NCBI GenBank assembly: GCA_963816345.1 | Contig: CAWFKI010000005.1 | Location: 2,550,053 to 2,614,052 of the forward strand | Source: an uncultured Bacteroidales bacterium | GTDB taxonomy: Bacteria > Bacteroidota > Bacteroidia > Bacteroidales > VadinHA17 | Length of the DNA: 64,000 nt | Direction: 5' to 3' | In this document: piece by piece, positions 24,657 to 52,645 of the stretch | Numbering within the stretch: position 1 is the stretch's first letter | Layout: each line of letters begins with the position of its first letter | The notes under the pieces: model-generated | Databases searched by the model: none | Told to the model about the DNA's origin: nothing | What the model saw: only the letters and a program-made list of their open reading frames with translations | Translations under genes and position numbers: made by a program

Positions 24657-24664
24657 TATATTTG
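24657..24664 (+). promoter_or_regulatory. Bacteroidetes-type -7 box (TAtaTTTG) for asnA
   Basis: TAnnTTTG match ending 19 nt upstream of ATG 24683. It overlaps the TTG start proposed in the ORF track, which argues for the ATG. Confidence 0.5.
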
Positions 24665-24682
24665 CTTCAAAAAGTAAAGAAT

Positions 24683-25720
24683 ATGTTACAGGAAGATATT
24701 CAGATGAGGGTCTCAGTTGTTTCGGGCAGATTGGAGACGGAGGAGGCTATTGGCTTTATCAAGGAAAAATTTTCAAAGAGGCTTGCGAGGAAGCTTAATC
24801 TGGTCTCCGTCTCAGCCCCCATTGCCGTTCTGGACGGGACAGGCATCAATGATGATCTGAACGGGATCGAGAAACCAGTTAGCTTCTCCATAAAAGGTAT
24901 GAACGGACATAAGGCGTCAGTTGTTCAATCTCTTGCAAAATGGAAGAGGCTTCGCTTGAAGGAATTTGAAATTGAACCCGGGATGGGCATCCTTACTGAT
25001 ATGCGGGCTTTAAGGCCTGATGAGGAACTGAGCCGGATACACTCGGTATATGTGGATCAGTGGGACTGGGAAAAACGCATCTTCCCCGAACAAAGGGTTC
25101 TGAATTATCTGAAGTCAACCGTTGAGAATATCTATGAAGCGATCAGGGCCACTGAAAGGGATCTCTTTGAAGCATATCCGGCGTTCGCTCCGGAATTGCC
25201 TGATAAGATATACTTTATACATTCCGAAGAACTTTTAAAGCAATTTCCGGATCTTACTGTCAAACAGAGGGAAAATGAAGTCGCACGTATTTTTGGTGCG
25301 GTATTTATTATCGGGATCGGGGCAAATCTCAGCAATGGTGAGCCTCATGATGGAAGGGCACCGGATTATGATGACTGGAGCTCATTAAATGAAGAAGGTT
25401 ATTCCGGACTCAATGGTGATATTATCCTGTGGAATCCGGTTCTGAACTCTGCTTTTGAGATCTCTTCCATGGGAATACGTGTAGACAGCAAGGCAATGGA
25501 AAGACAGCTTGAGATAAGGGGATGTTCCGAAAGACGGAATCTTCTTTTTCACAGTATGCTTCTGAATGAACAGCTCCCTGCCAGTATCGGCGGAGGCATC
25601 GGACAATCAAGGCTTTGCATGTTCTTTCTGAAGAAGCTGCATATTGGAGAAGTACAGTCAAGTATCTGGCCGGACGGGCTTCTTCAGCAACATGACCGGA
25701 ATGAACTTAAATTACTTTAA
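24683..25720 (+). CDS. asnA: Aspartate--ammonia ligase (asparagine synthetase A)
   Basis: Colinear with E. coli AsnA: LAKWKR, ALRPDE...HSVYVDQWDWE, APDYDDWS, GLNGDI.LWNPVL...FE.SSMGIRVD, GGGIGQSRL. Confidence 0.93.
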   Translation: MLQEDIQMRVSVVSGRLETEEAIGFIKEKFSKRLARKLNLVSVSAPIAVLDGTGINDDLNGIEKPVSFSIKGMNGHKASVVQSLAKWKRLRLKEFEIEPGMGILTDMRALRPDEELSRIHSVYVDQWDWEKRIFPEQRVLNYLKSTVENIYEAIRATERDLFEAYPAFAPELPDKIYFIHSEELLKQFPDLTVKQRENEVARIFGAVFIIGIGANLSNGEPHDGRAPDYDDWSSLNEEGYSGLNGDIILWNPVLNSAFEISSMGIRVDSKAMERQLEIRGCSERRNLLFHSMLLNEQLPASIGGGIGQSRLCMFFLKKLHIGEVQSSIWPDGLLQQHDRNELKLL

Positions 25721-25774
25721 AGGGTTTATATATTTAAAAAATCTATCTTTTGCTTGTATTTTATAAAAAAATAT

Positions 25775-25782
25775 TACATTTG
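25775..25782 (+). promoter_or_regulatory. Bacteroidetes-type -7 box (TAcaTTTG) for the ilv-leu operon leader
   Basis: TAnnTTTG match ending 21 nt upstream of the leader ATG at 25803. Confidence 0.55.
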
Positions 25783-25802
25783 CATTCTGATTTAAAGAGA
25801 TT

Positions 25803-25865
25803 ATGCAGAAACATACAATAATATATATTATTATCCTCGTACTCCTCATTGCTCTGCGCAAATGA
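25803..25865 (+). CDS. ilv-leu leader peptide MQKHTIIYIIILVLLIALRK (attenuator sensor ORF)
   Basis: 20-codon ORF in which 11 of 20 codons are Ile (6), Leu (4) or Val (1). It sits between the -7 box and an intrinsic terminator directly upstream of ilvD. Confidence 0.7.
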   Translation: MQKHTIIYIIILVLLIALRK

Positions 25866-25899
25866 ACCGGGAATAATATGTAGTACTATAAACTTACAG

Positions 25900-25929
25900 A
25901 AGCTTTCCGGGAGACCGGGAAGCTTTTTT
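25900..25929 (+). terminator. Intrinsic terminator of the ilv-leu attenuator
   Basis: 11-bp stem AAGCTTTCCGG/CCGGGAAGCTT (one G-U), loop GAGA, T6 run, ending 17 nt before the ilvD ATG. CCGGGAA at 25867-25873 can alternatively pair with TTTCCGG at 25904-25910. Confidence 0.75.
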
Positions 25930-25945
25930 AATATGAATTCATAAT

Positions 25946-27772
25946 ATGAAAAATCAGCTCAGAAGTTCAAAGACCACCACCGGGAGGAATATGGCAGGGG
26001 CAAGAAGTCTCTGGCGTGCCAACGGTATGAAGCAGGAACAATTCGGAAAGCCTGTCATTGCAATTGTCAACTCATTTACTCAGTTTGTGCCGGGCCATGC
26101 CCATCTTCACGAGATCGGTCAGCTGGTAAAAAAAGAGATAGAAAAGGCAGGATTTTTTGCTGCTGAATTTAATACAATCGCAATTGATGACGGGATTGCC
26201 ATGGGACATGAAGGGATGCTTTATTCCCTTCCGTCCAGGGAACTGATAGCCGACAGCATTGAATATATGTGCAATGCTCACCTTGCGGATGCCATGATAT
26301 GCATAAGCAACTGCGATAAGATTACTCCCGGAATGCTTATGGCAGCAATGAGGCTGAACATTCCTGCGGTATTTGTATCCGGAGGTCCTATGGAAGCAGG
26401 GTTCCGCAATAATAAATATATCGACCTGATAGATGCCATGGTAGCAGCCGCCGATAATTCGGTAAGCGAAAATGACCTGAGCGAAATTGAAAAATTAGCC
26501 TGTCCAACCTGCGGTTCATGCTCCGGCATGTTCACGGCAAACTCCATGAACTGCCTTAATGAGGCGCTTGGCCTGGCCCTTCCCGGAAACGGAACAATAG
26601 TGGCCACACACGCGAACAGGATAAAGCTGTTTGAAAAAGCTGCCGCATTAATTGCCGATATGGCTGACAGATATTATAATAAAGGTGATGCCTCTGTTCT
26701 TCCCAGATCGATAGCCACAAGGGAGGCGTTTATGAATGCAATGTCGCTCGACATAGCGATGGGAGGATCGACAAATACCGTTCTGCATCTTCTGGCCATC
26801 GCAAATGAAGCCGGAGTTGACTTTACAATGAAGGATATCGATGAGCTCTCCAGGAAAATTCCTAATATCTGCAAGGTGGCTCCAAGTTCACAATATCATG
26901 TCCAGGATGTCAACCGTGCGGGAGGCATTCTTGGAATAATGGGAGAACTGGAACGGGCAAACCTTATTAACAGCAAAGTAGGACGAGTGGATTATGCCAC
27001 TCTCCGTGAAGCTGTCTCCGACTGGGATATCATGGGAGGAAAAGCTGTTCAGGAAGCAACAGAAGTATTCCGGAGCGCGCCTGCCATGGAGAAAAACCTG
27101 GTCATGGGATCGCAGAATACAAGTTATAAAGAGCTTGATACCGACAGGGAAAAAGGGTGTATCAGGTCCGTAACCCACGCATATAATCAGGACGGAGGTC
27201 TTGCAGTGCTGTATGGGAATATCGCCAAAAAAGGATGCATTGTCAAAACTGCAGGTATAGAAGAATCATTGTTTAAATTCTCAGGTGGTGCGGTGATTTT
27301 TGAATCACAGGAAGATGCTGTTGAGGGAATTCTTAACGGTACCGTAAAAGCCGGGGATGTTGTTGTAATTAAATACGAAGGTCCCAAAGGTGGTCCCGGA
27401 ATGCAGGAAATGCTATACCCTACCTCCTATCTGAAGTCAATGGGTCTTGACAAGAAATGTGCCCTTATAACTGACGGACGCTTTTCAGGCGGTACATCAG
27501 GCCTTTCTATCGGTCACGTCTCCCCGGAAGCTGCCTCGGGAGGAGAGCTTGCACTGATCAGAACAGGCGACAGGATTGAAATAGATATTACGGGAAGAAA
27601 GATAAATGTTATGTTATCTGAGGATGAACTTGATTCCAGAAGGGCTGCTGAATCATCCAAAGGGAACAGGGCATACAAACCTGAAAAACGTAACCGTATT
27701 ATCTCCTCTGCACTTAAAGCTTATGCAAAATATGTAAGTTCAGCAGACCTGGGAGCTATAAGGATGATATAG
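25946..27772 (+). CDS. ilvD: Dihydroxy-acid dehydratase
   Basis: 608 aa with IlvD/Edd family motifs throughout ([37 protein letters not shown]). Confidence 0.95.
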
Positions 27773-27840
27773 CACGGGGCACAGGGCACAGAGCACAGGG
27801 CACAGAGCACAGAGCAAAGAGCACAGACTAGAGCATAGAG
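27772..27840. repeat. Tandem heptanucleotide array (GCACAGR)n
   Basis: GCACGGG GCACAGG GCACAGA GCACAGG GCACAGA GCACAGA GCAAAGA GCACAGA followed by a degenerate tail. It starts on the last base of the ilvD stop codon. Confidence 0.9.
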
Positions 27841-27885
27841 ATTACTAAGGGATAAAAAACAGGATATTAAGACAAAAATCGAAAT

Positions 27886-29626
27886 ATGAAGAGTGTAAAG
27901 GAAAAAGAACAGGCAACAGCACAAATTAACGGACTGGAGTGTATTACAGGTGCAGATGCCATAATAAGATGCCTCATTGAAGAGGGAGTTGATACTATAT
28001 TTGGTTATCCCGGCGGAGCTATCATGCCTGTATATGATAAGCTTCTTGATTATGAAGGTCAGATAAAGCATTATCTTACCCGTCACGAGCAGGGAGCAGC
28101 TCATGCAGCGCAGGCTTATGCCATGGTAAGCGGGAAACCGGGGATCTGCTTTGCAACATCAGGCCCGGGTGCTACAAATCTGGTAACAGGGATAGCAAAT
28201 GCGTTTCTCGACTCGGTTCCGGTTGTTTTTATTACAGCCCAGGTAGTATCGGGCCTCATAGGAACAGATGCTTTTCAGGAGACTGATATTATAGGTGTAT
28301 CGATGCCTGTGACAAAATGGAACTGCCAGATCAAGAAGCCACAGGATATACCTGAGACACTTGCAAAAGCTTTTTACATAGCAAAAACAGGCCGCCCCGG
28401 CCCCGTACTAATCGATATTACAAAAGATGCACAGATTGAGAAACTTGATTTCAGGTACTCCAAATGTGTCTCACTTGAGAAGCTATAATCCGAATATCCC
28501 CCTGCATACCAAGGCGATAGAATCGGCAGCAATAATCATCAACCATGCCGAAAGGCCTCTTATCCTTGCAGGACACGGAGTGCTTCTTTCCGGTGCAGAG
28601 AAGGAGCTTAAGGCATTTGCTGAGAAAACAGGCATACCTGTTGCGCTTACCCTCCTCGGGTTGTCTGCATTTCCATCCGACCACCGCCTCTTCGCCGGGA
28701 TGCTTGGCATGCACGGAAATTACGGCCCGAATCTGCTGACCAATCAGGCTGACCTCATAATAGCAATCGGAATGCGTTTTGATGACCGTGTTACGGGAAA
28801 TCTTAAAAAGTATGCAAATAATGCAACGATAATCCATATCGAGATTGATGAAGCCGAGATAAATAAAAATGTTGTGGTCGATGTTGAAATAAATAATGAT
28901 GCAAAGGAGGCTTTAACATATCTGACACGAATTGTGAAGGAGAACTCCTTTGAGAAATGGATCAGGGAATTCAGGATATGCGATAAAATCGAATACGATA
29001 AAGTTATCAAGCCTGAAACGAAACCAGAATCGGGTGAGATTAAGATGGGTGAGGTAATAAGACTGGTCTCCGAACATACAAAAGGAGATGCCATTATTGT
29101 AACGGATGTCGGACAACATCAGATGTATACTGCCCGTTACTATAAATTTAATAAACCAAACACACTTGTCACCTCGGGTGGAATGGGAACAATGGGTTTC
29201 GGCCTTCCTGCCGGGATAGGAGCAAAGATCGGAAGCCCGGAAAAGACTGTAATAGCATTCATAGGAGACGGTGGTTTCCAGATGACAATGCAGGAACTGG
29301 GAACAATATTGCAGTATGGCATTGCTCTGAAGATCATCATACTCAATAACAATTTCCTTGGAATGGTGCGCCAGTGGCAGGACATGTTTTTCGATAAGCG
29401 CTATGCCTCAACAGAACTGGTAAATCCGGATTTCGTTATGATAGCCAAAGCTTTCAGTATACCTTCAAAAAAAGTTACTCTGAGAGAAGACCTTAAAGAT
29501 TCCCTTATTGAGATGATAGACGCCGAGGGACCCTATCTTCTCGAAATAAAGGTGGAGAAGCAGGGAAATGTATTCCCAATGGTTGAACCGGGAAAATCAG
29601 TCTCGGAAATAAGATTGACTTATTAA
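27886..29626 (+). pseudogene. ilvB: Acetolactate synthase large subunit with an interrupted reading frame (authentic or sequencing artefact)
   Basis: ORF 27886-28488 (TPP-binding N-domain) ends ...[16 protein letters not shown] 28427-29626 in the +1 frame carries ...LRSYNPNIP...[10 protein letters not shown] and the rest of the enzyme. Removing one nt near 28477 would give a continuous ...[16 protein letters not shown]... protein. Confidence 0.85.
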
Positions 29627-29682
29627 CCCGCATTGCTGACAGCATGAGGGCAGAAAATCTTTAATATCAAAATTATATTACG

Positions 29683-30249
29683 ATGAAACAGGAATATACA
29701 ATATCGCTTTTCACTGAGGACCATATCGGTATCCTTGGACAGATAACAATCATACTTACCAGGAGGCAGATAAATATCGACAGCTTCAGCGCCTCCGAAT
29801 CAGCCGTAAAAGGGGTTCATCTTCTCACAATCGTTGTAAAAACAACAAGCGAGATGATCCAGAAAGTTGCAAGGCAGATGGAAAAGCTTGTAGATGTACT
29901 GAAAGTATTTGTGCATACATCCGACCAGATCATCTACCAGGAGATTGCACTGTTCAAGGTGACAACCAAGGGGCTGATGTCGGGAAACATCATTGACAAT
30001 ATAGTCAGGACTCATCATGCACGTATCCTTGAGGTATCACCCGAATACATTGTAATTGAAAAGACCGGTCACAGGACTGAAATTGCCGAATTGCTCAGCC
30101 AGCTCGAGCCGCACGGAGTGCTGCAGTTCGCCAAATCAGGAAGAATAGCGATAACAAAACAGGTTAAAGAGCTTAATTCATACCTTAAAGAGATGGATGC
30201 CGCTACCAGGCTAAAGCCTGAATCGCTGGACCTGCCACACAAAAATTAA
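29683..30249 (+). CDS. ilvN: Acetolactate synthase small (regulatory, ACT-domain) subunit
   Basis: 188 aa with an N-terminal ACT domain (ISLFTEDHIGILGQITIILTRRQINIDSF). Located between ilvB and ilvC. Confidence 0.88.
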   Translation: MKQEYTISLFTEDHIGILGQITIILTRRQINIDSFSASESAVKGVHLLTIVVKTTSEMIQKVARQMEKLVDVLKVFVHTSDQIIYQEIALFKVTTKGLMSGNIIDNIVRTHHARILEVSPEYIVIEKTGHRTEIAELLSQLEPHGVLQFAKSGRIAITKQVKELNSYLKEMDAATRLKPESLDLPHKN

Positions 30250-30326
30250 CTGCCGGGAAAACCAGTGTAAACTAATGACTATAAGAAAAATACCAGTATT
30301 AATCAAATATTTAATATTTAAAGATC

Positions 30327-31376
30327 ATGGCAAAAATTGATTTTGGCGGAGTAGTTGAGAATGTAGTTACAAGAGATGAGTTTCCACTCTCAAAAGCCCG
30401 TGAAGTGCTTAAGAATGAAATAGTAGCTGTAATTGGTTATGGCGTACAGGGACCTGCCCAGTCTCTTAATATGAGAGATAATGGAATAAATGTAATCATA
30501 GGACAGGCTCCGGAGTTTAAGGCCGACTGGGACAAAGCTGTAGCAGATGGTTTTGTACCGGGGAAAACTCTTTTCCCTGTTGAGGAAGCAGTAAAAAAAG
30601 GCACAATCATTCAGTACCTTGTTTCAGACGCAGCTCAGCGTATTCTCTGGCCAAAAGTCAAGGAATGCCTTAAGAAGGGCGATGCACTCTATTTTTCCCA
30701 TGGTTTTTCAATAACTTATAAAGAGCATACAGGGGTTATTCCTCCTCCTTATGTGGATGTTATACTCTGTGCGCCGAAAGGTTCCGGGACCAGTGTCCGC
30801 AGGAATTTCCTGGCAGGTGCAGGAATTAACTCCAGCTTCTCAGTCTTTCAGGATTATACCGGAAGAGCTGAAGAACGCACCATTGCACTTGGTATAGCAA
30901 TTGGTTCAGGTTACCTCTTCCCGACAACTTTTGAACTTGAGGTTTTCAGCGATCTGACGGGTGAACGGGGAGTTCTGATGGGTGCCCTTGCCGGCATTAT
31001 GGATGCACAGTACAAGGTACTTCGCGAGAATGGTCACAGCCCTTCGGAAGCATTTAACGAAACTGTTGAGGAGCTCACCCAGAGCCTGATACGGCTCGTC
31101 GATGAGAACGGCATGGACTGGATGTATTCCAACTGCAGCGCTACTGCCCAGCGTGGAGCCCTCGACTGGCGTCCGAAATTCATGGCTGCAACACTTCCCG
31201 TTTTCAAGGAGCTCTATAGCAGGGTCAAATCCGGTGAGGAATGTGTCAGAGTGCTCAAATCCACCGGCGCTCCCAACTATAAAGAGATGCTCGACGGAGA
31301 ACTCAGGGAACTTGGCGATTCTGAAATGTGGAGAGCCGGAGCTGCTGTCAGGAAACTCAGGCCGCTGAAAAAATAA
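30327..31376 (+). CDS. ilvC: Ketol-acid reductoisomerase (class I)
   Basis: 349 aa with a Rossmann motif VIGYGVQGPAQSLNMRDNG and a C-terminal knotted-domain region. Confidence 0.93.
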   Translation: MAKIDFGGVVENVVTRDEFPLSKAREVLKNEIVAVIGYGVQGPAQSLNMRDNGINVIIGQAPEFKADWDKAVADGFVPGKTLFPVEEAVKKGTIIQYLVSDAAQRILWPKVKECLKKGDALYFSHGFSITYKEHTGVIPPPYVDVILCAPKGSGTSVRRNFLAGAGINSSFSVFQDYTGRAEERTIALGIAIGSGYLFPTTFELEVFSDLTGERGVLMGALAGIMDAQYKVLRENGHSPSEAFNETVEELTQSLIRLVDENGMDWMYSNCSATAQRGALDWRPKFMAATLPVFKELYSRVKSGEECVRVLKSTGAPNYKEMLDGELRELGDSEMWRAGAAVRKLRPLKK

Positions 31377-31398
31377 ACTGTTATAAACAACTGATAAA

Positions 31399-32892
31399 AT
31401 GAATAATAAGATCATAATTTTTGATACTACCCTCAGGGACGGGGAACAGGTGCCGGGATGCCAGTTGAATACAATTGAAAAGATCGAAGTGGCCCAGGCC
31501 CTTGAAGCGCTTGGAGTGGACGTCATCGAGGCAGGTTTTCCCATTTCAAGTCCGGGAGATTTCAAATCAGTGGTTGAAATTTCCAAAGCCATTACGAATC
31601 CTGTGATCTGTGCCCTTACCCGTGCAATTAAAAAAGATATTGAAGTGGCCGCCGAGGCCCTTCAGTATGCAAAAAGGAAAAGGATACATACCGGGATCGG
31701 CACTTCTCCATTCCATATACAATATAAGATAAAAACAACTCCTGAGGAGATATTGAAAAGAGCTGCCGATGCAGTCAAATACGCCAGGAAATTTGTGGAT
31801 GATGTGGAGTTCTATGCAGAGGATGCAGGCAGAAGCGAAAACGAGTATCTCGCAAGGGTTATCGAAGCTGTTATCAAGGCAGGCGCCACTGTTGTAAATA
31901 TTCCCGATACTACCGGCTATTGCCTTCCGGAGGAGTACGGAGCAAAAATAAAGTATCTTAAGGACAATGTGCCCAATATCGACAAGGCAATAATTTCAAC
32001 CCATTGCCATAACGATCTTGGAATGGCTACCGCCAATACAATGATGGGTGTCATAAACGGCGCCAGACAGGTTGAGGTGACAATAAACGGTATAGGAGAG
32101 AGAGCAGGGAACACCTCCCTGGAAGAGATAGCGATGATCATCAAGAGCCATCACAACCTTAATTTAAAGACTGACATCAATACCAAGCTGATCTACAGCA
32201 CCAGCAGGCTTGTATCAACACTGATGAGCATGCCTGTTCAGGCCAATAAAGCCATTGTCGGAAGAAATGCATTTGCGCACTCATCCGGTATTCACCAGGA
32301 CGGCGTACTGAAAAACAGGGAGAACTATGAGATAATTGATCCTGTAGAGGTGGGCGTTAAGGAGTCATCAATCATACTTACAGCACGTAGCGGAAGAGCC
32401 GCTCTTAATCACAGGCTTGAATTGCTCGGTTTCAAATTCGGTAAAGAAGAGATAGACGATATTTATCACCGTTTCCTGCTTCTTGCCGATAAAAAGAAAG
32501 ATATCAACGATGAAGACATGCGGATCCTGGCAGGTGAGGTATTCCAGGGGGAGAACTCCCTGAAGCTCGATCTGCTTCAGGTATCCTGCGGAAAGTCACT
32601 TATCCCTGTGGCCACGGTAGGTGTGAAAATCAACGGGGAACTTCATTTTTCAACTGCTTCCGGCAACGGGCCCATCGATGCGGCATTCACTGCCGTCAGG
32701 CATCTGATAAGCAAGACCGTTCATCTTGAGGAATTCCTCATCCAGGCGATAACAAAGGGAAGCGATGACCTTGGGAAGGTTCATATCCAGGTTGAGCACG
32801 AAGGAAAGACGTACTACGGGTTCTCTGCCAATACCGATATCATTACTGCTTCTGTTGAAGCCTTTATTGATGCACTGGCGAAGATTGGCTGA
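31399..32892 (+). CDS. leuA: 2-isopropylmalate synthase
   Basis: 497 aa. Motifs: [24 protein letters not shown], and a C-terminal LeuA dimerisation/regulatory domain (GNGPIDA). Confidence 0.92.
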
Positions 32893-33020
32893 CCTCAGGA
32901 CATTACGTCATGAGGGCAAAGGAGGCGGGTTTTACCCCCGGGTAAAGAATAATTGGGGGTTGCGCCGGAAGGGGCGATAAGATCAAAGTAATAGAAGAAT
33001 ATGTATTTAAGAAATAATAA

Positions 33021-34436
33021 ATGAAGCCAAAAACACTTTTTGACAAGATCTGGGACGGACATGTGGTACGATCCATAGAAGAGGGTCCGGATGTTCTGTA
33101 TATCGACAGGCATTATATCCATGAGGTAACCAGCCCTCAGGCATTTAATGGATTGAAGGAGAGAGGAGTATCTGTTTTTCGTCCTGAAAAGACACTGGCA
33201 ACGGCAGACCATAACATACCTACAAAAGACCAGCATCTTCAGATCAGGGATGAGTTATCCAGGAACCAGGTTGAAAGGCTGACTGAAAATTGCAGTAAAT
33301 ACGGGATTCAACTCTTCGGACTGAATCATTCCAAAAACGGGATTGTTCATGTCATAGGCCCTGAACTGGGCTATACCCTTCCCGGAATGACAATAGTCTG
33401 CGGGGACAGTCATACCTCAACGCATGGGGCATTCGGAACAATTGCGTTCGGAATAGGAACCAGTGAGGTCGAGATGGTTCTTGCAACCCAGTGCATCCTT
33501 CAGCCGAAACCGAAGAAGATGCGCATCACAATAAACGGAAAACTGAATAAAGGAGTAACATCGAAGGATATAATAATGTATATCATCTCCGAACTATCCA
33601 CCGGAGGCGCTACCGGTTATTTTGTTGAATATGCCGGTTCAGCCATCACGGGACTCTCTATGGAAGCAAGAATGACTGTGTGCAATATGAGTATAGAGAT
33701 GGGAGCCCGGGGAGGATTGATAGCGCCGGATGAGACCACATTCAGCTACATCAGGAAAATTCCTTCAATACCCGGAATTGAAAATATTGAAGCAGCAATA
33801 AAAAACTGGAAGAATCTTAAGAGCGACCCTGATGCCCTCTTCGACAGGGAACTGACATTTGAAGCAGGTGATATAAAGCCCATGATAACATACGGAACAA
33901 ATCCGGGAATGGGAATGGCAATTGACGCCTCAATACCCTCTGCTCCTGAAAATGGCGGAGCTTCTTACCTGAAATCGCTTGATTATATGGGCCTTAAGCC
34001 CGGGATGAAACTCCTTGGACACCCTGTCAACTATGTATTTATCGGGAGCTGTACAAACGGAAGGATTGAAGACTTCAGGGCATTTGCCCGGGTAATAAAG
34101 GGAAGGAAAAAAGCGCCCGGGATTGAAGCCCTTATAGTTCCAGGATCTAAAAGGGTTGAAGCACAGATGATTGAGGAAGGACTTATCGAAATATATAAAA
34201 ATGCCGGCTTCGAGGTGAGACAACCTGGTTGCTCCTCCTGCCTGGCTATGAATGAGGATAAGATCCCTGCAGGGAAATATGCGGTTTCTACATCAAACAG
34301 GAACTTTGAAGGCAGACAGGGCCCCGGAGCCAGGACTCTTCTTGCGAGCCCGTTCACTGCTGCTGCTGCTGCCATAACCGGAGTGATATCCGATCCCCGC
34401 GAATTTATTTCTGAAGAAACCAACGTCAAAATATAA
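33021..34436 (+). CDS. leuC: 3-isopropylmalate dehydratase large subunit
   Basis: 471 aa aconitase-family protein. Motifs: [39 protein letters not shown]. Confidence 0.95.
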
Positions 34437-34440
34437 ACTC

Positions 34441-35043
34441 ATGGCAAAAGTAAAATTTGATATTCTTGAGTCAACCTGTGTACCATTACCATTGGAAAAT
34501 GTTGATACCGATCAGATTATCCCTGCAAGGTTTCTGAGTGCCACATCCAGGGAGGGGTTTGGGAACAATCTGTTCCGCGACTGGCGATATAAGAAGTCAG
34601 GCGAGCCTGAAACGGACTTCGTTCTCAATAACCCGGTTTTCAGCGGAAAGATTCTTGTTACAGGCAAGAATTTCGGAAGCGGTTCGAGTCGTGAGCATGC
34701 CGTATGGGCAATATTTGATTATGGCTTCAGGGCCGTGGTATCGAGCTTTTTCGCTGATATCTTCACAAATAATTCCCTGAATAACGGACTTCTGCCGATA
34801 GTGATACCGGAAGAACTCCTGAAAAAGCTCCATGCACTGATTCAGAAGGAACCAGCAACAAAAGTTAAAATAGATCTTGAAAACCAGACATTTACAATAG
34901 TCTCAACAGGAGATTCCGTCAGGTTCGCTATAAACCCCTATAAGAAAGAATGCCTCCTGAAGGGACTCGATGATATCGACTTCCTGCTTGGAATGAAAGA
35001 GATGATAACCGGTTTTGAAACAAATAAAAGTGTGATGAGATGA
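34441..35043 (+). CDS. leuD: 3-isopropylmalate dehydratase small subunit
   Basis: 200 aa with the aconitase swivel-domain motif GKNFGSGSSREHA. Starts 5 nt after leuC. Confidence 0.93.
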   Translation: MAKVKFDILESTCVPLPLENVDTDQIIPARFLSATSREGFGNNLFRDWRYKKSGEPETDFVLNNPVFSGKILVTGKNFGSGSSREHAVWAIFDYGFRAVVSSFFADIFTNNSLNNGLLPIVIPEELLKKLHALIQKEPATKVKIDLENQTFTIVSTGDSVRFAINPYKKECLLKGLDDIDFLLGMKEMITGFETNKSVMR

Positions 35044-36584
35044 GAGTTGAAATTATGGATACTACCCTAAGGGATGGTGAACAGACTCAGGGTGTGTCAT
35101 ATTCACCGCTCGAAAAACTGCATATAGCCAAGCTTCTTCTCAAGGATCTGAAGGTAGACAGGATTGAAGTAGCTTCGGCCCGAGTATCTACCGGAGAATT
35201 CGAAGCACTCACTAAAATTACCGAATGGGCCCGCCATAATAACCTTCACAGGAATATTGAGGTACTTGGTTTTGTGGACGGCGATATTTCCCTTAACTGG
35301 ATAAATGATGCAGGAGGCAAAGTTGTGAACCTCCTTTGCAAAGGCTCTCTCAGACATCTTGAAAAGCAGCTTAGAAAAACACCTGAACAGCATGTTAACA
35401 ATATCAGGGAAATCATCCGAAGGGCTGAGACTCTTGATATGGAGGTAAATATCTATCTGGAGGACTGGTCGAACGGAATGATCCACTCCGAAGAGTATGT
35501 GTTTTATATGCTTGATTCATTGAAGGATGATAACATTCAAAGATTCATGCTCCCGGATACCCTTGGAATTCTTAACCAGGAACAGACATATGCCTTCTGC
35601 AAAAAGGTAATCGATAAGTATCCTGACCTGCACTTTGATTTTCATGCACATAATGATTATGATCTTGCTGTTGCCAACGTCTTCTCTGCTGTCAGGGCAG
35701 GGATTAAAGGCATTCATACTACAGTTAACGGGCTTGGCGAGAGAGCCGGTAATGCACCGCTCTCAAGCGTAATAGGCATACTCCGCGACCAGCTTTCTGC
35801 TGAGACAGGCATCAACGAATATGAGATAACAAAAGTCAGCAAAATTGTAGAGACATTCAGCGGTATCCGCATCCCGGTCAATAAGCCGGTGATAGGTGAG
35901 AACGTATTCACCCAGACATCGGGCGTACACGCAGACGGTGACAGTAAGGATAATCTTTATTACAATAATCTGATGCCGGAACGTTTCGGCAGGAAAAGAA
36001 AATATGCCCTGGGAAAACAATCAGGCAAAGCCACAGTAAGAAAAAACCTCGAGGAATTCGGACTCTTTCTTAATCAGGAATCGCTTGCCAGGGTAACCCA
36101 GAGAGTTATTGAACTGGGCGATAAAAAGGAAAATGTGACAACCGAGGATCTGCCATTCATAATTGCTGATGTTCTCGGCAGTGAACAGATAAACTATAAA
36201 ATCTTAATTAAAAATTATTCCCTCTCCCTCTCATACGGTCTTAAACCTTCGGCAAATGTCCAGGTGGAGATTGACGGTAACCTTTACCAGGAGGCATCCT
36301 CGGGCGACGGTCAGTATGATGCGTTTATGAAAGCATTGAGGATTATCTATGACAAGCTGGGAAAGAAATACCCGGCGCTGACAGATTACCAGGTATCGAT
36401 ACCTCCGGGCGGAGCCACCGATGCACTGGTGGAAACAGTGATTACCTGGGATTATAATGGAAAGGAATTCAAAACCAAGGGACTGGATGCCGACCAGACT
36501 GAATCGGCAATAAAGGCAACAGAAAGAATGCTCAATATTGTTGAAGGACTGGTTGAGAAAGAGCTGAGATCACCGGGCCTGTAG
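35040..36584 (+). CDS. cimA: Second IPMS-family enzyme, citramalate-synthase-like
   Basis: 514 aa. Motifs: [24 protein letters not shown]-terminal LeuA_dimer-type domain (SGDGQYDAF). ATGA overlap with the leuD stop. Assignment as citramalate synthase rather than IPMS is inferred from paralogy and length. Confidence 0.6.
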   Translation: MRVEIMDTTLRDGEQTQGVSYSPLEKLHIAKLLLKDLKVDRIEVASARVSTGEFEALTKITEWARHNNLHRNIEVLGFVDGDISLNWINDAGGKVVNLLCKGSLRHLEKQLRKTPEQHVNNIREIIRRAETLDMEVNIYLEDWSNGMIHSEEYVFYMLDSLKDDNIQRFMLPDTLGILNQEQTYAFCKKVIDKYPDLHFDFHAHNDYDLAVANVFSAVRAGIKGIHTTVNGLGERAGNAPLSSVIGILRDQLSAETGINEYEITKVSKIVETFSGIRIPVNKPVIGENVFTQTSGVHADGDSKDNLYYNNLMPERFGRKRKYALGKQSGKATVRKNLEEFGLFLNQESLARVTQRVIELGDKKENVTTEDLPFIIADVLGSEQINYKILIKNYSLSLSYGLKPSANVQVEIDGNLYQEASSGDGQYDAFMKALRIIYDKLGKKYPALTDYQVSIPPGGATDALVETVITWDYNGKEFKTKGLDADQTESAIKATERMLNIVEGLVEKELRSPGL

Positions 36585-36643
36585 ATTTAAAATTACGACA
36601 ATCATTATTAATCAAATAACTAAATATAAAACGTTTAAAACTT

Positions 36644-37705
36644 ATGGGGAAATCATACAATATCGCAGTTATTCCCGGTGATGGCACCGGTCCGGAGGTT
36701 GTAAGGGAAGGTAAAAAAGTGCTTAGCGCCGTTGCCTCAAAATTCGGATTTAAACTGAATTATGAAGAGTTCGATTTCGGAGGAAACAGGTACCTCAAGA
36801 CCGGCGAAGTACTTCCTGATTCTGCATCGGAAGAGCTAAAGAAGTTCGATTCAATATTTCTCGGGGCTATCGGACATCCCGATGTCAAGCCAGGCATCCT
36901 CGAAAAGGGGATCCTTCTGAAGCTTCGGTTTGATCTTGACCAGTATATCAACCTGCGCCCTATCAAACTTTACCCGGGGGTGGCAACACCACTCAAGGAT
37001 AAAGGACCCGAGGATATCGACTATGTTGTTGTCAGGGAAAATTCAGGCGATGTCTATACAGGCAGCGGTGGCACCACTATGAAAGGTACTCCCCATGAGG
37101 TTGCAATACAGAATATGATCTATTCCCGCATGCAGGTGGACCGGTGTCTGCGCTATGCATTTGAATATACCAGGAAGAGAAATAAGAGAAAAACCCTGGC
37201 TCTCTGCGGAAAAACAAATGTGCTTACATATGTTTTTGACCTTTGGGAGAGAGCATTCCATGAGATCGGCAAGGCTGAATATCCTGATATTAAGCGGGAA
37301 TACTACCATGTCGATGCAACATGCATGTGGATGGTTAAAAATCCCGAATGGTTCGATGTTATCGTTACAACAAACATGTTCGGGGATATTATAACGGACC
37401 TCGGGGCTATAACGCAGGGAGGCATGGGAATAGCAGCAGGTGGAAATATAAATCCCCAGGGTGTCTCAATGTTTGAGCCTATCGGCGGATCCGCTCCGAA
37501 ATATACCGGCAAAAATGTAATCAATCCTCTGGCTGCAATAGCCTGCGGCGGAATGATGCTTGAACATCTTGGTGAAGAAAAAGCTGCACACGCACTCGAA
37601 GAGGCAATAATGTTTGTCACTGCCAACAAGCTGAAGGATATGGGCGCCGGGAAAATGGGTTACTCAACAACTGAGGTCGGGGATCTTGTAGCAGAACGGG
37701 TATAA
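36644..37705 (+). CDS. leuB: 3-isopropylmalate dehydrogenase
   Basis: 353 aa. Motifs: [31 protein letters not shown]. Confidence 0.92.
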
Positions 37706-37757
37706 CATGCTGATTTGCCAACCGCCTCCGGGGGTGTGGAAAATGATACTTTCTTCA

Positions 37758-37812
37758 CCTTTGTGTTGTCCTTTGTGATCCTTTGTGTTTAACCTTTGTG
37801 TTTAACCTTTGT
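37758..37812. repeat. Tandem CCTTTGTG-core repeats (periods 10-13 nt)
   Basis: CCTTTGTGTTGT CCTTTGTGAT CCTTTGTGTTTAA CCTTTGTGTTTAA CCTTTGTA. A related block occurs at 44394-44440. Confidence 0.85.
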
Positions 37813-37885: not shown

Positions 37886-37893
37886 TATCTTTG
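37886..37893 (+). promoter_or_regulatory. Bacteroidetes-type -7 box (TAtcTTTG) for the his operon leader
   Basis: TAnnTTTG match ending 19 nt upstream of the leader ATG at 37912. Confidence 0.55.
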
Positions 37894-37911
37894 CATTTAC
37901 AAATTAAAGAA

Positions 37912-37971
37912 ATGAACCACATTACATCACATCATCATTTTTCAGATGCTTGCCTTCAGGCGAGGAGATAA
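37912..37971 (+). CDS. his operon leader peptide MNHITSHHHFSDACLQARR
   Basis: 19-codon ORF with 4 His codons, three of them consecutive (37930-37938). It is followed by an intrinsic terminator and then hisG. Confidence 0.6.
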   Translation: MNHITSHHHFSDACLQARR

Positions 37972-37998
37972 TGATATGTGAATATATTAAGATATCAT

Positions 37999-38030
37999 AA
38001 ACCCGTCTGAACAGATCAGGCGGGTTTTTT
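37999..38030 (+). terminator. Intrinsic terminator of the his attenuator
   Basis: 12-bp stem AAACCCGTCTGA/TCAGGCGGGTTT (one G-U), loop ACAGA, T6 run. TCAGGCG at 37955-37961, inside the leader ORF 3' end, duplicates part of the 3' arm and can pair with CGTCTGA at 38004-38010. Confidence 0.75.
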
Positions 38031-38072
38031 AATTTCCTGCCGGGCCTGTTCAGACACAAAAGCTGATGAAAA

Positions 38073-45233: not shown

Positions 45234-45241
45234 TACTTTTG
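45234..45241 (+). promoter_or_regulatory. Bacteroidetes-type -7 box (TActTTTG) for the aromatic operon leader
   Basis: TAnnTTTG match ending 21 nt upstream of the leader ATG at 45262. Confidence 0.55.
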
Positions 45242-45261
45242 TAACCCAATAAGGCAGTCAA

Positions 45262-45327
45262 ATGAATATTGTGTACAAATATTTTATCTCCTTTTTCTAC
45301 TTCTATTTTTACTTTAAAAACAGATAA
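45262..45327 (+). CDS. Aromatic (Phe/Tyr) leader peptide MNIVYKYFISFFYFYFYFKNR
   Basis: 21-codon ORF in which 6 codons are Phe and 5 are Tyr. It is followed by an intrinsic terminator 13 nt before pheA. Confidence 0.7.
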   Translation: MNIVYKYFISFFYFYFYFKNR

Positions 45328-45367
45328 GGGGATTTTTGTATACAGATATAATTAATTTATATGAAAC

Positions 45368-45400
45368 AAGGGTCCCGCAAAGGGGCCCTTATTTGTTTTT
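45368..45400 (+). terminator. Intrinsic terminator of the Phe/Tyr attenuator
   Basis: 9-bp stem AAGGGTCCC/GGGGCCCTT (one G-U), loop GCAAA, followed by ATTTGTTTTT. Confidence 0.7.
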
Positions 45401-51073: not shown

Positions 51074-51081
51074 TATTTTTG
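51074..51081 (+). promoter_or_regulatory. Bacteroidetes-type -7 box (TAttTTTG) for the trp leader / trpB2
   Basis: TAnnTTTG match ending 32 nt upstream of the leader ATG at 51113. Confidence 0.5.
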
Positions 51082-51112
51082 TGTAACGGCTGCAATCAGC
51101 AGAGTAATAATT

Positions 51113-51175
51113 ATGAAAGTAAAAATGTTTAATATCTGGTCCTGGCGCAACTTAAGCGATTATGCTGTGAAATAA
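51113..51175 (+). CDS. Trp leader peptide MKVKMFNIWSWRNLSDYAVK
   Basis: 20-codon ORF with two TGG codons two positions apart (51137-51139 and 51143-51145). Its 3' end is complementary to part of the downstream terminator. Confidence 0.65.
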   Translation: MKVKMFNIWSWRNLSDYAVK

Positions 51176-51209
51176 GCCGTTATATAACATTTAAATGATA
51201 TTTATCTAT

Positions 51210-51239
51210 AAAGGCACGCTTTTCACAGCGTGCCTTTTT
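51210..51239 (+). terminator. Intrinsic terminator of the Trp attenuator
   Basis: 11-bp perfect stem AAAGGCACGCT/AGCGTGCCTTT, loop TTTCAC, T run. GCTGTGAAA at 51164-51172 (end of the leader ORF) is a perfect complement of TTTCACAGC at 51221-51229, giving an antiterminator. Confidence 0.8.
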
Positions 51240-51277
51240 AATTTTGCATTTTCAATCAACCATCAAAACTAAATAAA

Positions 51278-52645
51278 ATGGAAAAACTCAGAAAAATCAT
51301 CCTAAGTGAAAAAGAAATGCCAACGCACTGGTATAATATTATGGCAGATATGCCAAACAAGCCATTGCCTCCGTTACATCCCGGAACAAAAAAGCCTGTA
51401 GGTCCTGAGGATCTTGCAGCTGTTTTCCCCATGGAACTGATCAAACAGGAGGTATCAACAGAAAGATATATCGAGATACCTGATGAGGTCCTTTCTCTTT
51501 ATCATACCTATCGTCCGTCACCGCTCTTCAGGGCTCTGGGTCTCGAGAAGGCTATTGGTACAAAAAGCAAAATATACTACAAGTATGAGGGAGGCAACTA
51601 TTCCGGTTCGCATAAAGCCAATACTGCCATTCCCCAGGCCTATTACAACAAGAAGGAGGGAGTACGCAGGATCACCACTGAGACCGGCGCCGGGCAGTGG
51701 GGAAGTGCGATGAGCTTTGCCTGTAACCATTTCGGTCTCGAACTGCTGGTCTTCATGGTAAGGGTCAGCTACGAACAGAAGCCTGGCCGTAAGCTTCTTA
51801 TGAATGCCTATAATGCAAAGGTGGTTCCATCACCCAGCTCAATGACCGAGGCCGGCAGAAAAGTACTTGAAATGTTTCCTGATTCCCCGGGCAGCCTCGG
51901 GATCGCAATCTCTGAAGCGATGGAGGTGGCAGTTCAGGATCCCTATACCAAATACTCACTCGGAAGCGTTCTCAATCATGTTATCCTGCATCAGACCATT
52001 ATCGGACAGGAAGCCCTTATACAGATGGGAAAGACAGATGATTATCCGGATGTGGTAATCGGTTGTTTCGGTGGCGGTTCCAACTTCTCCGGAATAGCAT
52101 TTCCGTTTCTGAGGGAAAATCTGGTCAATGGTAAGAAGACAAGGCTTCTGACAGTTGAACCAGCTTCATGCCCTAAGCTTACAAAAGGAAAATTCATGTA
52201 TGACTTTGGTGATTCTGCAGGAATGACCCCTCTTCTCCCGATGTACACCCTGGGTCATAATTTCATCCCTGCAAAGATCCATGCAGGCGGCCTTCGCTAT
52301 CATGGCGCCGGTGTTCTGGTAAGCCAGCTTCTGAAGGACGGATTCATCGAGGCCAGGGCCAAGATGCAGAGGGAATGTTTTGAAGCCGGAGTGCTTTTTG
52401 CAAGAACCGAAGGGATCCTGCCGGCACCCGAATCTACATACGCTATTGCTGCAGCTCTTGATGAAGCAAGGACAGCCGATCTCGAGGGAGTATCAAAAAC
52501 AATTCTCTTTAACCTGAGCGGACACGGTCATTTTGATATCTCGGCTTATGAGAAATATTTTGAGGGAAATCTGCCCGACCATGAGATGACAACCGCAGAG
52601 GTCGAGGAGGCTATCTCAAAAATAGATCTGCCGGTATTGATGTAA
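51278..52645 (+). CDS. trpB: TrpB2-type (long, stand-alone) tryptophan synthase beta-like PLP enzyme
   Basis: 455 aa. The N-terminal extension EMPTHWYNIMADMPNKPLPPLHP is typical of TrpB2. Motifs: GSHKANTA (PLP lysine), TETGAGQWGSA, GGGSNF. Confidence 0.88.
   Translation: MEKLRKIILSEKEMPTHWYNIMADMPNKPLPPLHPGTKKPVGPEDLAAVFPMELIKQEVSTERYIEIPDEVLSLYHTYRPSPLFRALGLEKAIGTKSKIYYKYEGGNYSGSHKANTAIPQAYYNKKEGVRRITTETGAGQWGSAMSFACNHFGLELLVFMVRVSYEQKPGRKLLMNAYNAKVVPSPSSMTEAGRKVLEMFPDSPGSLGIAISEAMEVAVQDPYTKYSLGSVLNHVILHQTIIGQEALIQMGKTDDYPDVVIGCFGGGSNFSGIAFPFLRENLVNGKKTRLLTVEPASCPKLTKGKFMYDFGDSAGMTPLLPMYTLGHNFIPAKIHAGGLRYHGAGVLVSQLLKDGFIEARAKMQRECFEAGVLFARTEGILPAPESTYAIAAALDEARTADLEGVSKTILFNLSGHGHFDISAYEKYFEGNLPDHEMTTAEVEEAISKIDLPVLM

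Follow-up and report, generated by a model that had tools for sequence, protein, structure and literature searches.

Immediately upstream of ilvD in an uncultured Bacteroidales bacterium lies a short leader region that we read, with a probability of roughly 85%, as a classical ribosome-mediated leader-peptide transcription attenuator of the ilvD-ilvBN-ilvC-leuA-leuCD-cimA-leuB operon. The region is part of a 64,000-nt stretch of contig CAWFKI010000005.1 (hereafter the window). An attenuator had been proposed in an initial annotation made from the sequence alone; we confirm the underlying observation, and the attenuator interpretation is supported by the rarity of the leader, its conservation, its alternative RNA folds and the co-variation of its pairing segments. 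These properties and the elements themselves are demonstrated below, together with a translation signature of the leader open reading frame (ORF), while termination, ribosome stalling and a response to amino-acid supply are what we infer from them. The leader and operon comprise the following features, the coordinates of which are window positions and, for the leader region, all match the sequence as read.

25749-25752 (TTTG) and 25753-25756 (CTTG), plus strand: -33-like promoter element, a sequence motif ending 18 nt before the -7 box.
25775-25782, plus strand: -7 box of the Bacteroidetes type, TACATTTG (TAnnTTTG), a sequence motif.
25803-25865, plus strand: leader ORF of 20 codons plus TGA (ATG at 25803, TGA at 25863-25865), product MQKHTIIYIIILVLLIALRK.
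25818-25856, plus strand: putative regulatory codon run (codons 6-18), with 11 isoleucine, leucine or valine (ILV) codons in 13 positions.
25822-25840, plus strand: region 1, Ile/Leu codons that form the 5' arm of a predicted 1:2 anti-antiterminator or pause hairpin (minimum free energy [MFE] fold).
25866-25882, plus strand: region 2, the post-stop switch segment with the core CCGGGAA (25867-25873), predicted to pair with region 1 or region 3.
25879-25898, plus strand: small inner hairpin closing the antiterminator loop (constrained fold).
25898-25910, plus strand: region 3, the terminator 5' arm, in which TTTCCGG (25904-25910) doubles as the antiterminator partner.
25915-25929, plus strand: region 4, the terminator 3' arm (25915-25927) with the T6 run (25924-25929).
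25946-37705, plus strand: the putatively controlled operon ilvD, ilvB (two ORFs), ilvN, ilvC, leuA, leuC, leuD, cimA-like and leuB.

The leader peptide MQKHTIIYIIILVLLIALRK contains 6 Ile, 4 Leu and 1 Val, i.e., 11 ILV codons out of 20, and no Shine-Dalgarno sequence precedes its start in the window. In the terminator core, AAGCTTTCCGG (25900-25910) and CCGGGAAGCTT (25915-25925) form 11 pairs, one of them G-U, around a GAGA loop; RNAfold lengthens the stem to 13 pairs (25898-25910 with 25915-25927). CCGGGAA begins 2 nt past the leader stop and pairs with TTTCCGG over 7 bp (one G-U) to give the antiterminator. The -7 box, the ILV-rich ORF, the hairpin and the T6 run are thus all present where the initial annotation had placed them, and the pairing of CCGGGAA with the terminator arm, which it had also pointed out, co-varies across lineages, as described below. 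Transcription probably starts at approximately 25789 (25787-25791), a few bases past the -7 box. From the end of the T-run to the ilvD ATG (25946) there are only 16 nt, and no TAnnTTTG box was found between the leader stop and ilvD. This short gap and the lack of a promoter motif after the leader suggest that ilvD can be expressed solely via terminator read-through.

Among the 557 ATG-initiated ORFs of 15 to 35 codons on both strands of the window, the leader is the sole one with at least 55% ILV; the ILV share in 18 ordinary window proteins is 23.7%. When the 225-nt spacer (28% GC) was shuffled with its dinucleotides preserved, an ORF with at least 55% ILV arose in 5/5000 cases. The leader codons are common ones, and no rare codons, which were checked as a possible sensing aid, are present in the window leader.

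The predicted leader RNA (25789-25935) has a folding energy of -35.2 kcal/mol in RNAfold, lower than that of 200/200 shuffled sequences (z = -3.6), and its MFE fold consists of two hairpins, one formed by 25822-25840 with 25866-25882 and the other being the terminator. For the individual structures we obtained -14.2 kcal/mol (1:2 hairpin), -12.0 kcal/mol (antiterminator 2:3, including the inner hairpin) and -20.6 kcal/mol (terminator 3:4). The folding check proposed in the initial annotation therefore does yield mutually exclusive structures, with the terminator at -20.6 and the antiterminator at -12.0 kcal/mol. The two-state switch envisaged there holds in that the terminator and antiterminator exclude each other, but it misses a third element: 25822-25840 pairs with 25866-25882, and since region 1 pairs with region 2 the switch would have three states, not two. 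When the codon run is masked to mimic a stalled ribosome and the RNA extends only as far as the terminator loop, the lowest-energy fold is the antiterminator. Masking through approximately 25878, mimicking a ribosome at the stop codon, blocks the antiterminator, and the terminator forms. In folds of the full-length RNA the terminator wins every time, so that the switch must be kinetic, as in the classical cases. A simple terminator scanner did not list the leader hairpin, although RNAfold and a separate scan do detect it; the miss may be due to the stem absorbing part of the T-run and thereby failing the scanner's tail rule.

To follow the leader through other genomes without bias towards its sequence, loci were collected via the IlvD protein, with one genome per species (80 loci). 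The closest IlvD relatives, at 83% identity, are from Bacteroidales metagenome-assembled genomes. Most Bacteroidales and Marinilabiliales loci have an ILV-rich mini-ORF of 18 to 32 codons approximately 80 to 260 nt 5' of ilvD, and the carriers include Bacteroides, Phocaeicola, Alistipes, Odoribacter, Paludibacter, Labilibaculum and Prolixibacteraceae; Bacteroides species have leaders of the MNLHTSINLAVLHIIRVVVVASRA type. Considering ATG starts only, ILV-rich ORFs were found upstream of ilvD in 29/54 Bacteroidota, compared to 1/54 in the reverse-complement control and 0/22 in other phyla. With GTG/TTG starts and looser T-runs allowed, approximately 39 of the 57 Bacteroidota loci carry the leader; an equivalent ORF before ilvD was present in none of 23 non-Bacteroidota genomes. 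In 28/32 loci the 90 nt that precede the leader start contain an exact TAnnTTTG (3/32 in the reverse-complement control), mostly beginning 19 to 47 nt ahead of the start codon. The terminator-to-gene gap is short in most relatives. These data, together with 101 metagenomic relatives, establish the conservation of the mini-ORF before ilvD across Bacteroidales and Marinilabiliales for which the initial annotation had suggested looking.

The metagenomic relatives (the window clade) were retrieved with the pattern CCGGGAATAATATG-N(10-30)-AGCTTTCCGG, which gave at least 120 contigs and, from these, 101 distinct aligned leader regions. The leader ORF is open in 101/101 of them. In three, a 2-nt deletion shifts the stop to a TAA inside GGGAATAA, as read by hand from the alignment; the script mis-framed these three leaders. 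Start codons, assigned by script, are ATG (37), GTG (50) and TTG (14), at a single site that is mostly 20 to 22 nt after the -7 box. In the clade sequences checked there is an in-frame stop just 5' of the leader start, and the clade leader stop is 0 to 1 nt ahead of CCGGGAA. For codons 4 to 16 the mean entropy is 0.66, 0.24 and 0.74 bits at codon positions 1, 2 and 3. T is fixed at position 2 of the ILV codons, in contrast to the variable positions 1 and 3, and I, L and V interchange at position 1. A fixed middle T with drifting first positions indicates selection on the Ile/Leu/Val codon class and not on a fixed peptide. The leaders of relatives are 55% to 57% ILV, with only 0.6% to 1.7% F and 0.6% to 2.2% M, and with A, G and W scarce. 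Phe and Met codons share the middle T and yet are near absent, which argues that selection favours codons for the operon's three end products and not hydrophobicity as such. This comparative signature suggests that the leader ORF is translated.

The RNA elements are retained in the window clade as well. Across the 101 sequences, pairing is kept in 95% to 100% for the 1:2 core and in 98.9% for the terminator helix, and the inner hairpin (25879-25898) is paired in 84%, with two-sided changes at 3 pairs. Two-sided co-variation in the clade helices is almost absent, though the helices are kept. Third codon positions within the 1:2 core (CAT ATT) are almost invariant, unlike those of other Ile/Leu codons. 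Alignment A1 shows no variation in the -7 box. In 89/102 clade members a TTTG precedes this box at a distance of exactly 18 nt, a spacing at which the window subclade has (C/A)TTG. The attenuator parts of the window are intact and match the clade consensus.

Two features of the codon run were observed in passing. The composition of the clade leaders (I 31%, L 20.5%, V 5.6%) is Ile/Leu-heavy and Val-poor, whereas the broad GTDB set uses the three about equally; the Val-poor composition might track operon content, with leu genes and cimA fused to ilv. In addition, a His codon (codon 7, CAT) before Ile-Ile recurs in distant lineages (…LIHII…, …VLHIIR…, e.g., in the Bacteroides-type locus L040). 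In the window clade the His codon may be accounted for by the pairing of CAU AUU AUU with AAUAAUAUG of region 2.

Because the clade set is biased with respect to the antiterminator, the 2:3 pairing was assessed in the set fetched via IlvD. For 32 loci with a leader, a strong hairpin and a T-run, the 18 nt from the stop codon onwards were compared with the terminator 5' arm. The mean duplex energy is -10.1 kcal/mol, while the same 18 nt shuffled give -5.1 kcal/mol (standard deviation of set means 0.36). Control windows paired with the terminator 5' arm give -2.1 (upstream of the leader), -2.6 (within the ORF) and -1.3 kcal/mol (spacer). In 26/32 loci the duplex reaches -7 kcal/mol or lower, and the pairing strand often includes the stop codon itself. 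Both sides of the pairing change jointly between lineages, in matched sequence classes. In the window clade CCGGGAA is matched by TTTCCGG, and in Bacteroides and numerous other loci (U)GAGAAAGG is matched by CCTTTCTC(A), the GAAAGG/CCTTTC class. CCATTC is the partner of GAGTGG or GGGTGG at four loci, and GAGAATGG/CCGTTCTC and GGAAGGGC/GCCCTTCC are found at one locus each. In a table of cross-class energies, the best values are those of cognate classes. The terminator is present in all 32 loci, being a selection criterion of the set. As to the 1:2 pairing, region 2 pairs with the coding run in 30/32 leader-only MFE folds, a count without a shuffle control; the 1:2 duplex energy has z < -1.64 relative to shuffles in 11/32 loci, with a mean z of -1.15.

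Some loci are organised differently. In L020 and L029 (Ancylomarina, Labilibaculum) and in L069 (Odoribacter), the leader ORF extends 8 to 11 codons beyond the ILV run and the post-stop segment fails to match the terminator arm; in L069 a complementary GAGAAAGG sits within the leader ORF. A terminator-like hairpin is found directly upstream of the leader in L016, L020 and L029.

In the mechanism that we propose, expression of the operon would be set by the supply of charged tRNA-Ile, tRNA-Leu and tRNA-Val. Transcription would start at approximately 25789, and the 20-codon leader would be translated behind the advancing RNA polymerase. When the amino acids are plentiful, the ribosome would reach the UGA at 25863-25865 and its footprint would hide CCGGGAA (25867-25873); with region 2 hidden, the terminator (25898-25927) would form and transcription would stop at the T-run near 25929. 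When Ile, Leu or Val is scarce, the ribosome would stall in the codon run, most effectively at codons 6 to 15 (25818-25847). Such a stall would open the 1:2 hairpin, and the freed region 2 would capture the nascent TTTCCGG (25904-25910), so that no terminator forms and polymerase reads through into ilvD. Without any translation, region 1 (25822-25840) would keep region 2 (25866-25882) and the terminator would again form.

Several points weigh against this reading. Transcription-translation coupling is not known to operate in this phylum, in which Shine-Dalgarno sequences are scarce, and the attenuator mechanism in this organism is a prediction from sequence. GTG or TTG serves as the start codon in approximately 63% of the clade leaders, an unexpected choice where prompt translation is needed; these starts may tune basal read-through. 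The search pattern for the clade set fixes region 2 and part of region 3, making that set uninformative on the 2:3 antiterminator. The terminator is 8.6 kcal/mol more stable than the antiterminator. Moreover, in thermodynamic folds the nascent RNA without a ribosome slightly favours the antiterminator over the 1:2 hairpin, so that the no-translation state would rest on folding order. In the window alone, the 1:2 pairing is no better than in shuffles (z = -0.88), because the region is AT-rich, and its support there comes from conservation. Finally, about one-third of the Bacteroidota loci lack such a leader directly 5' of ilvD.

The switch could be real but set by something other than a translating ribosome, i.e., an RNA-binding protein, a small molecule, a directly bound uncharged tRNA (T-box-like) or Rho. 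Alternative RNA structures alone do not reveal what flips them, and the weak GTG/TTG starts frequent in the clade and the unproven coupling in Bacteroidota would fit such a trigger. However, no T-box or other riboswitch family was listed in an Rfam scan of 25600-26100 with E up to 10, and at gathering score neither the whole window nor the ilvD leaders of 9 relatives gave a relevant match. Between lineages, the RNA outside the helices is poorly conserved, while the ORF, the codon class and the position of the stop at region 2 are kept. These are the needs of a ribosome-sensed switch, not of a ligand or protein site, and disfavour another trigger. In addition, the enriched amino acid matches the downstream operon in all 4 leaders of this kind in the window (see below). 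We therefore regard a trigger other than the ribosome as unlikely.

The mini-ORF might alternatively encode a real, non-regulatory small membrane peptide with its own promoter and terminator, with ilvD being expressed independently. The hydrophobicity of the peptide and its length, which would suffice for a short membrane helix, favour this view, as do the conservation of the ORF, its signs of translation and an arrangement of promoter, ORF and terminator that resembles a self-contained unit. Against this, ilvD appears to be reachable only through the terminator, given the 16-nt gap and the absence of TAnnTTTG after the leader stop, and the gap between terminator and gene is short in most relatives too. 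The composition is specific to I, L and V, among which the first codon positions drift, and F, M, A, G and W are scarce. A peptide gene would have no need for co-variation between the post-stop segment and the terminator arm, and the His, Phe/Tyr and Trp versions of the leader precede their cognate operons. Neither a conserved peptide, nor the composition of a membrane helix, nor independent expression of ilvD is apparent for the leader, and we consider a membrane peptide very unlikely.

According to a third explanation, the element has decayed and lost its regulatory role, within an operon that is itself being lost. The operon genes have NCBIfam matches for ilvD, ilvB (both ORFs), ilvN, ilvC, leuA, leuC, the cimA-like synthase and leuB; 34441-35043 is probably leuD, judging from its size and position, and the shared strand and short gaps suggest that the genes from ilvD to leuB are co-transcribed. 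The relic explanation draws on ilvB, which is frameshifted and split into the overlapping ORFs 27886-28488 and 28427-29626. However, the attenuator parts are all intact and agree with the clade consensus, the remaining eight operon genes are intact, and ilvB itself is intact in 43 clade contigs, being split only in the window and in L002; it is also intact in all more distant loci checked. A decayed element is thus highly improbable, and the ilvB split seems likelier to be a sequencing or assembly indel error, or a very recent lesion. A conserved programmed frameshift in ilvB was considered too, since L002 (4994-6674) splits at nearly the same place, and was rejected given the 43 intact clade contigs.

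Least probable of all is that the hairpin and T-run are the terminator of asnA (24662-25720, NCBIfam match), the upstream neighbour on the same strand, and the ILV-rich ORF a chance product of the spacer: there is no other terminator between asnA and ilvD, and AT-rich DNA abounds in Ile and Leu codons, but chance yields such an ORF in only approximately 0.1% of shuffles, asnA and the ORF are separated by a conserved -33/-7 promoter, and synteny refutes the idea, as the ORF and terminator stay with ilvD while the upstream neighbour varies in size and, in 11/30 loci, is encoded on the other strand, showing that the hairpin is not the neighbour's terminator.

The attenuator design recurs in the window, with cognate codons, before the his and pheA-tyrA-aroA operons and a trpB-like gene. 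The His leader (37886-38033) has a -7 box TATCTTTG at 37886-37893, an ORF at 37912-37971 encoding MNHITSHHHFSDACLQARR (4 His) and a hairpin at 37999-38027 with a T-run, followed by hisG (38073), hisD, hisC and hisB; this hairpin is the first terminator past leuB. The Phe/Tyr leader (45234-45400) has its -7 box at 45234 and an ORF at 45262-45327 encoding MNIVYKYFISFFYFYFYFKNR (6 Phe, 5 Tyr). Its post-stop UAAGGGGAUUUUUGU complements the terminator 5' arm (-13.6 kcal/mol), and it precedes genes for prephenate dehydratase, an aminotransferase, prephenate dehydrogenase and DAHP synthase, as well as aroA. The Trp-type leader (51074-51246) has a -7 box at 51074, an ORF at 51113-51175 encoding MKVKMFNIWSWRNLSDYAVK (with W-S-W) and a hairpin at approximately 51210-51237 with a T-run, upstream of a TrpB-like gene at 51278; the Rfam Bacteroid-trp model stays below gathering score on 51113-51175. 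A second ILV leader was also sought in the window, with GTG and TTG starts included, and the other candidates were rejected, being located inside genes or before minus-strand genes. Two repeats were observed within and after the operon: a 7-nt tandem repeat, AGCACAG x8 (27771-27827), takes up a large part of the 113 nt separating ilvD from ilvB, and a CCTTTGTG-type motif (tcctttgtgatcctttgtgtttaacctttgtgtttaacctttgt) is directly repeated several times at 37755-37812, between leuB and the promoter of the His leader.

Among the closest known counterparts is the leader of the E. coli ilvGMEDA operon (ilvL), a multivalent Ile/Leu/Val attenuator of approximately 32 codons, along with ivbL (ilvBN) and leuL. 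Like ilvL, the window leader is a short ORF mixing Ile, Leu and Val codons, with one leader for three amino acids; immediately ahead of the branched-chain genes there is a 1:2 hairpin, together with an antiterminator and a Rho-independent terminator, and the stop codon adjoins the switch segment. Unlike ilvL, it has 20 instead of approximately 32 codons, a Bacteroidetes -33/-7 promoter and no Shine-Dalgarno sequence, and it precedes a fused ilv-leu-cimA operon headed by ilvD; GTG/TTG starts are frequent among its relatives. There is no detectable similarity between the two in sequence or by covariance model. In the Rfam scan of 25600-26100 (E up to 10), the leader matches no family at gathering score, and Leu_leader, His_leader, Thr_leader, Trp_leader, Phe_leader, Leu/phe leader and Bacteroid-trp all fail to reach it on the ilv leader. 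The best match is Phe_leader, with 17.7 bits versus a gathering score of 55 (E = 2.4), and is driven by the terminator.

Within the Bacteroidota, an Ile-rich leader, MRKFNIIPSIIIAIVIITTAKGML, before ilvE-ilvD-ilvB-ilvH has been proposed from transcriptome maps of Flavobacterium psychrophilum (PMC9723704, supplement D9, Table S7). Its authors read the Ile-rich ORF in the mapped structured 5' region as leader-peptide attenuation, as a prediction, and also proposed a His-rich leader, MSLNQLHHHHFHICSQAKC, before hisG (PMC9723704), which MNHITSHHHFSDACLQARR of the window resembles. The ilvE leader and ours share the phylum and a short Ile-rich ORF ahead of ilv genes; they differ in class (Flavobacteriia versus Bacteroidia), in the first gene (ilvE versus ilvD) and in the length of the 5' region (437 versus approximately 140 nt), and there is no obvious sequence similarity. 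The Bacteroid-trp leader (Rfam RF01692) was found computationally upstream of tryptophan biosynthesis genes in Bacteroidetes (PMC2864571). As a curated family, it indicates that leader-based control of this type has already gained acceptance for Bacteroidetes; it differs in having Trp codons before a trp operon, and its model fails to match the ilv leader and, on 51113-51175, does not reach gathering score. In B. thetaiotaomicron, short ORFs "reminiscent of leader peptides" have been described (PMC7366714).

A functional test of amino-acid attenuators in Bacteroides or Bacteroidota was not found in the searchable literature, which together with the predictions that were found fits the remark in the initial annotation that such control has been predicted but hardly tested in Bacteroidetes. 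The B. thetaiotaomicron transcriptome supplements have no entry for BT_2078, which we take to be the ilvD of this organism, for 'ilvD' or for a nearby small ORF. Vitreschak et al. reportedly described candidate amino-acid attenuators in Bacteroidetes/Chlorobi among other groups in 2004. PMC2864571 and PMC4833913 refer to that study (FEMS Microbiol Lett 234:357) and to Lopatovskaya 2010 (Mol Biol 44:128); what is presented here on breadth, on the translation signature and on co-variation may go beyond both.

Leader-peptide attenuation is a textbook mechanism that, to our knowledge, has been studied functionally almost exclusively in Proteobacteria. The Bacteroidota are set apart by their promoters and by the near absence of Shine-Dalgarno-led initiation. 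This kind of leader is already on record in the phylum. The one described here bears the sequence hallmarks of the textbook switch; it is unsurprising to the specialist and leaves the understanding of the mechanism unchanged. Tentatively, the ilvD leader could be a member of a large uncurated, Shine-Dalgarno-free family in Bacteroidales and Marinilabiliales, with approximately 63% GUG/UUG starts in the window clade, although we regard this wider claim as doubtful. The value of the finding lies in a broad uncurated family with clear comparative support, in the Shine-Dalgarno-free leaders with frequent GUG/UUG starts and in the presence of four cognate leaders in the window. Practical uses would be modest, namely a better annotation of gut Bacteroidales with regard to 5' regions and small ORFs and a candidate for a new curated RNA family; a natural amino-acid-responsive switch may also be of use in engineering. 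A conserved ilv-leu attenuator, with members in cultured Bacteroides, Alistipes and Odoribacter, offers a direct handle on coupling-dependent control in Bacteroidota, and 4 switches (Ile/Leu/Val, His, Phe/Tyr and Trp) within 26 kb make the window a compact system for coupling tests. If the leader is a true attenuator, tight coupling of ribosome and polymerase would operate in Bacteroidota, and the strength of leader initiation may itself be tuned, setting the basal level of the operon.

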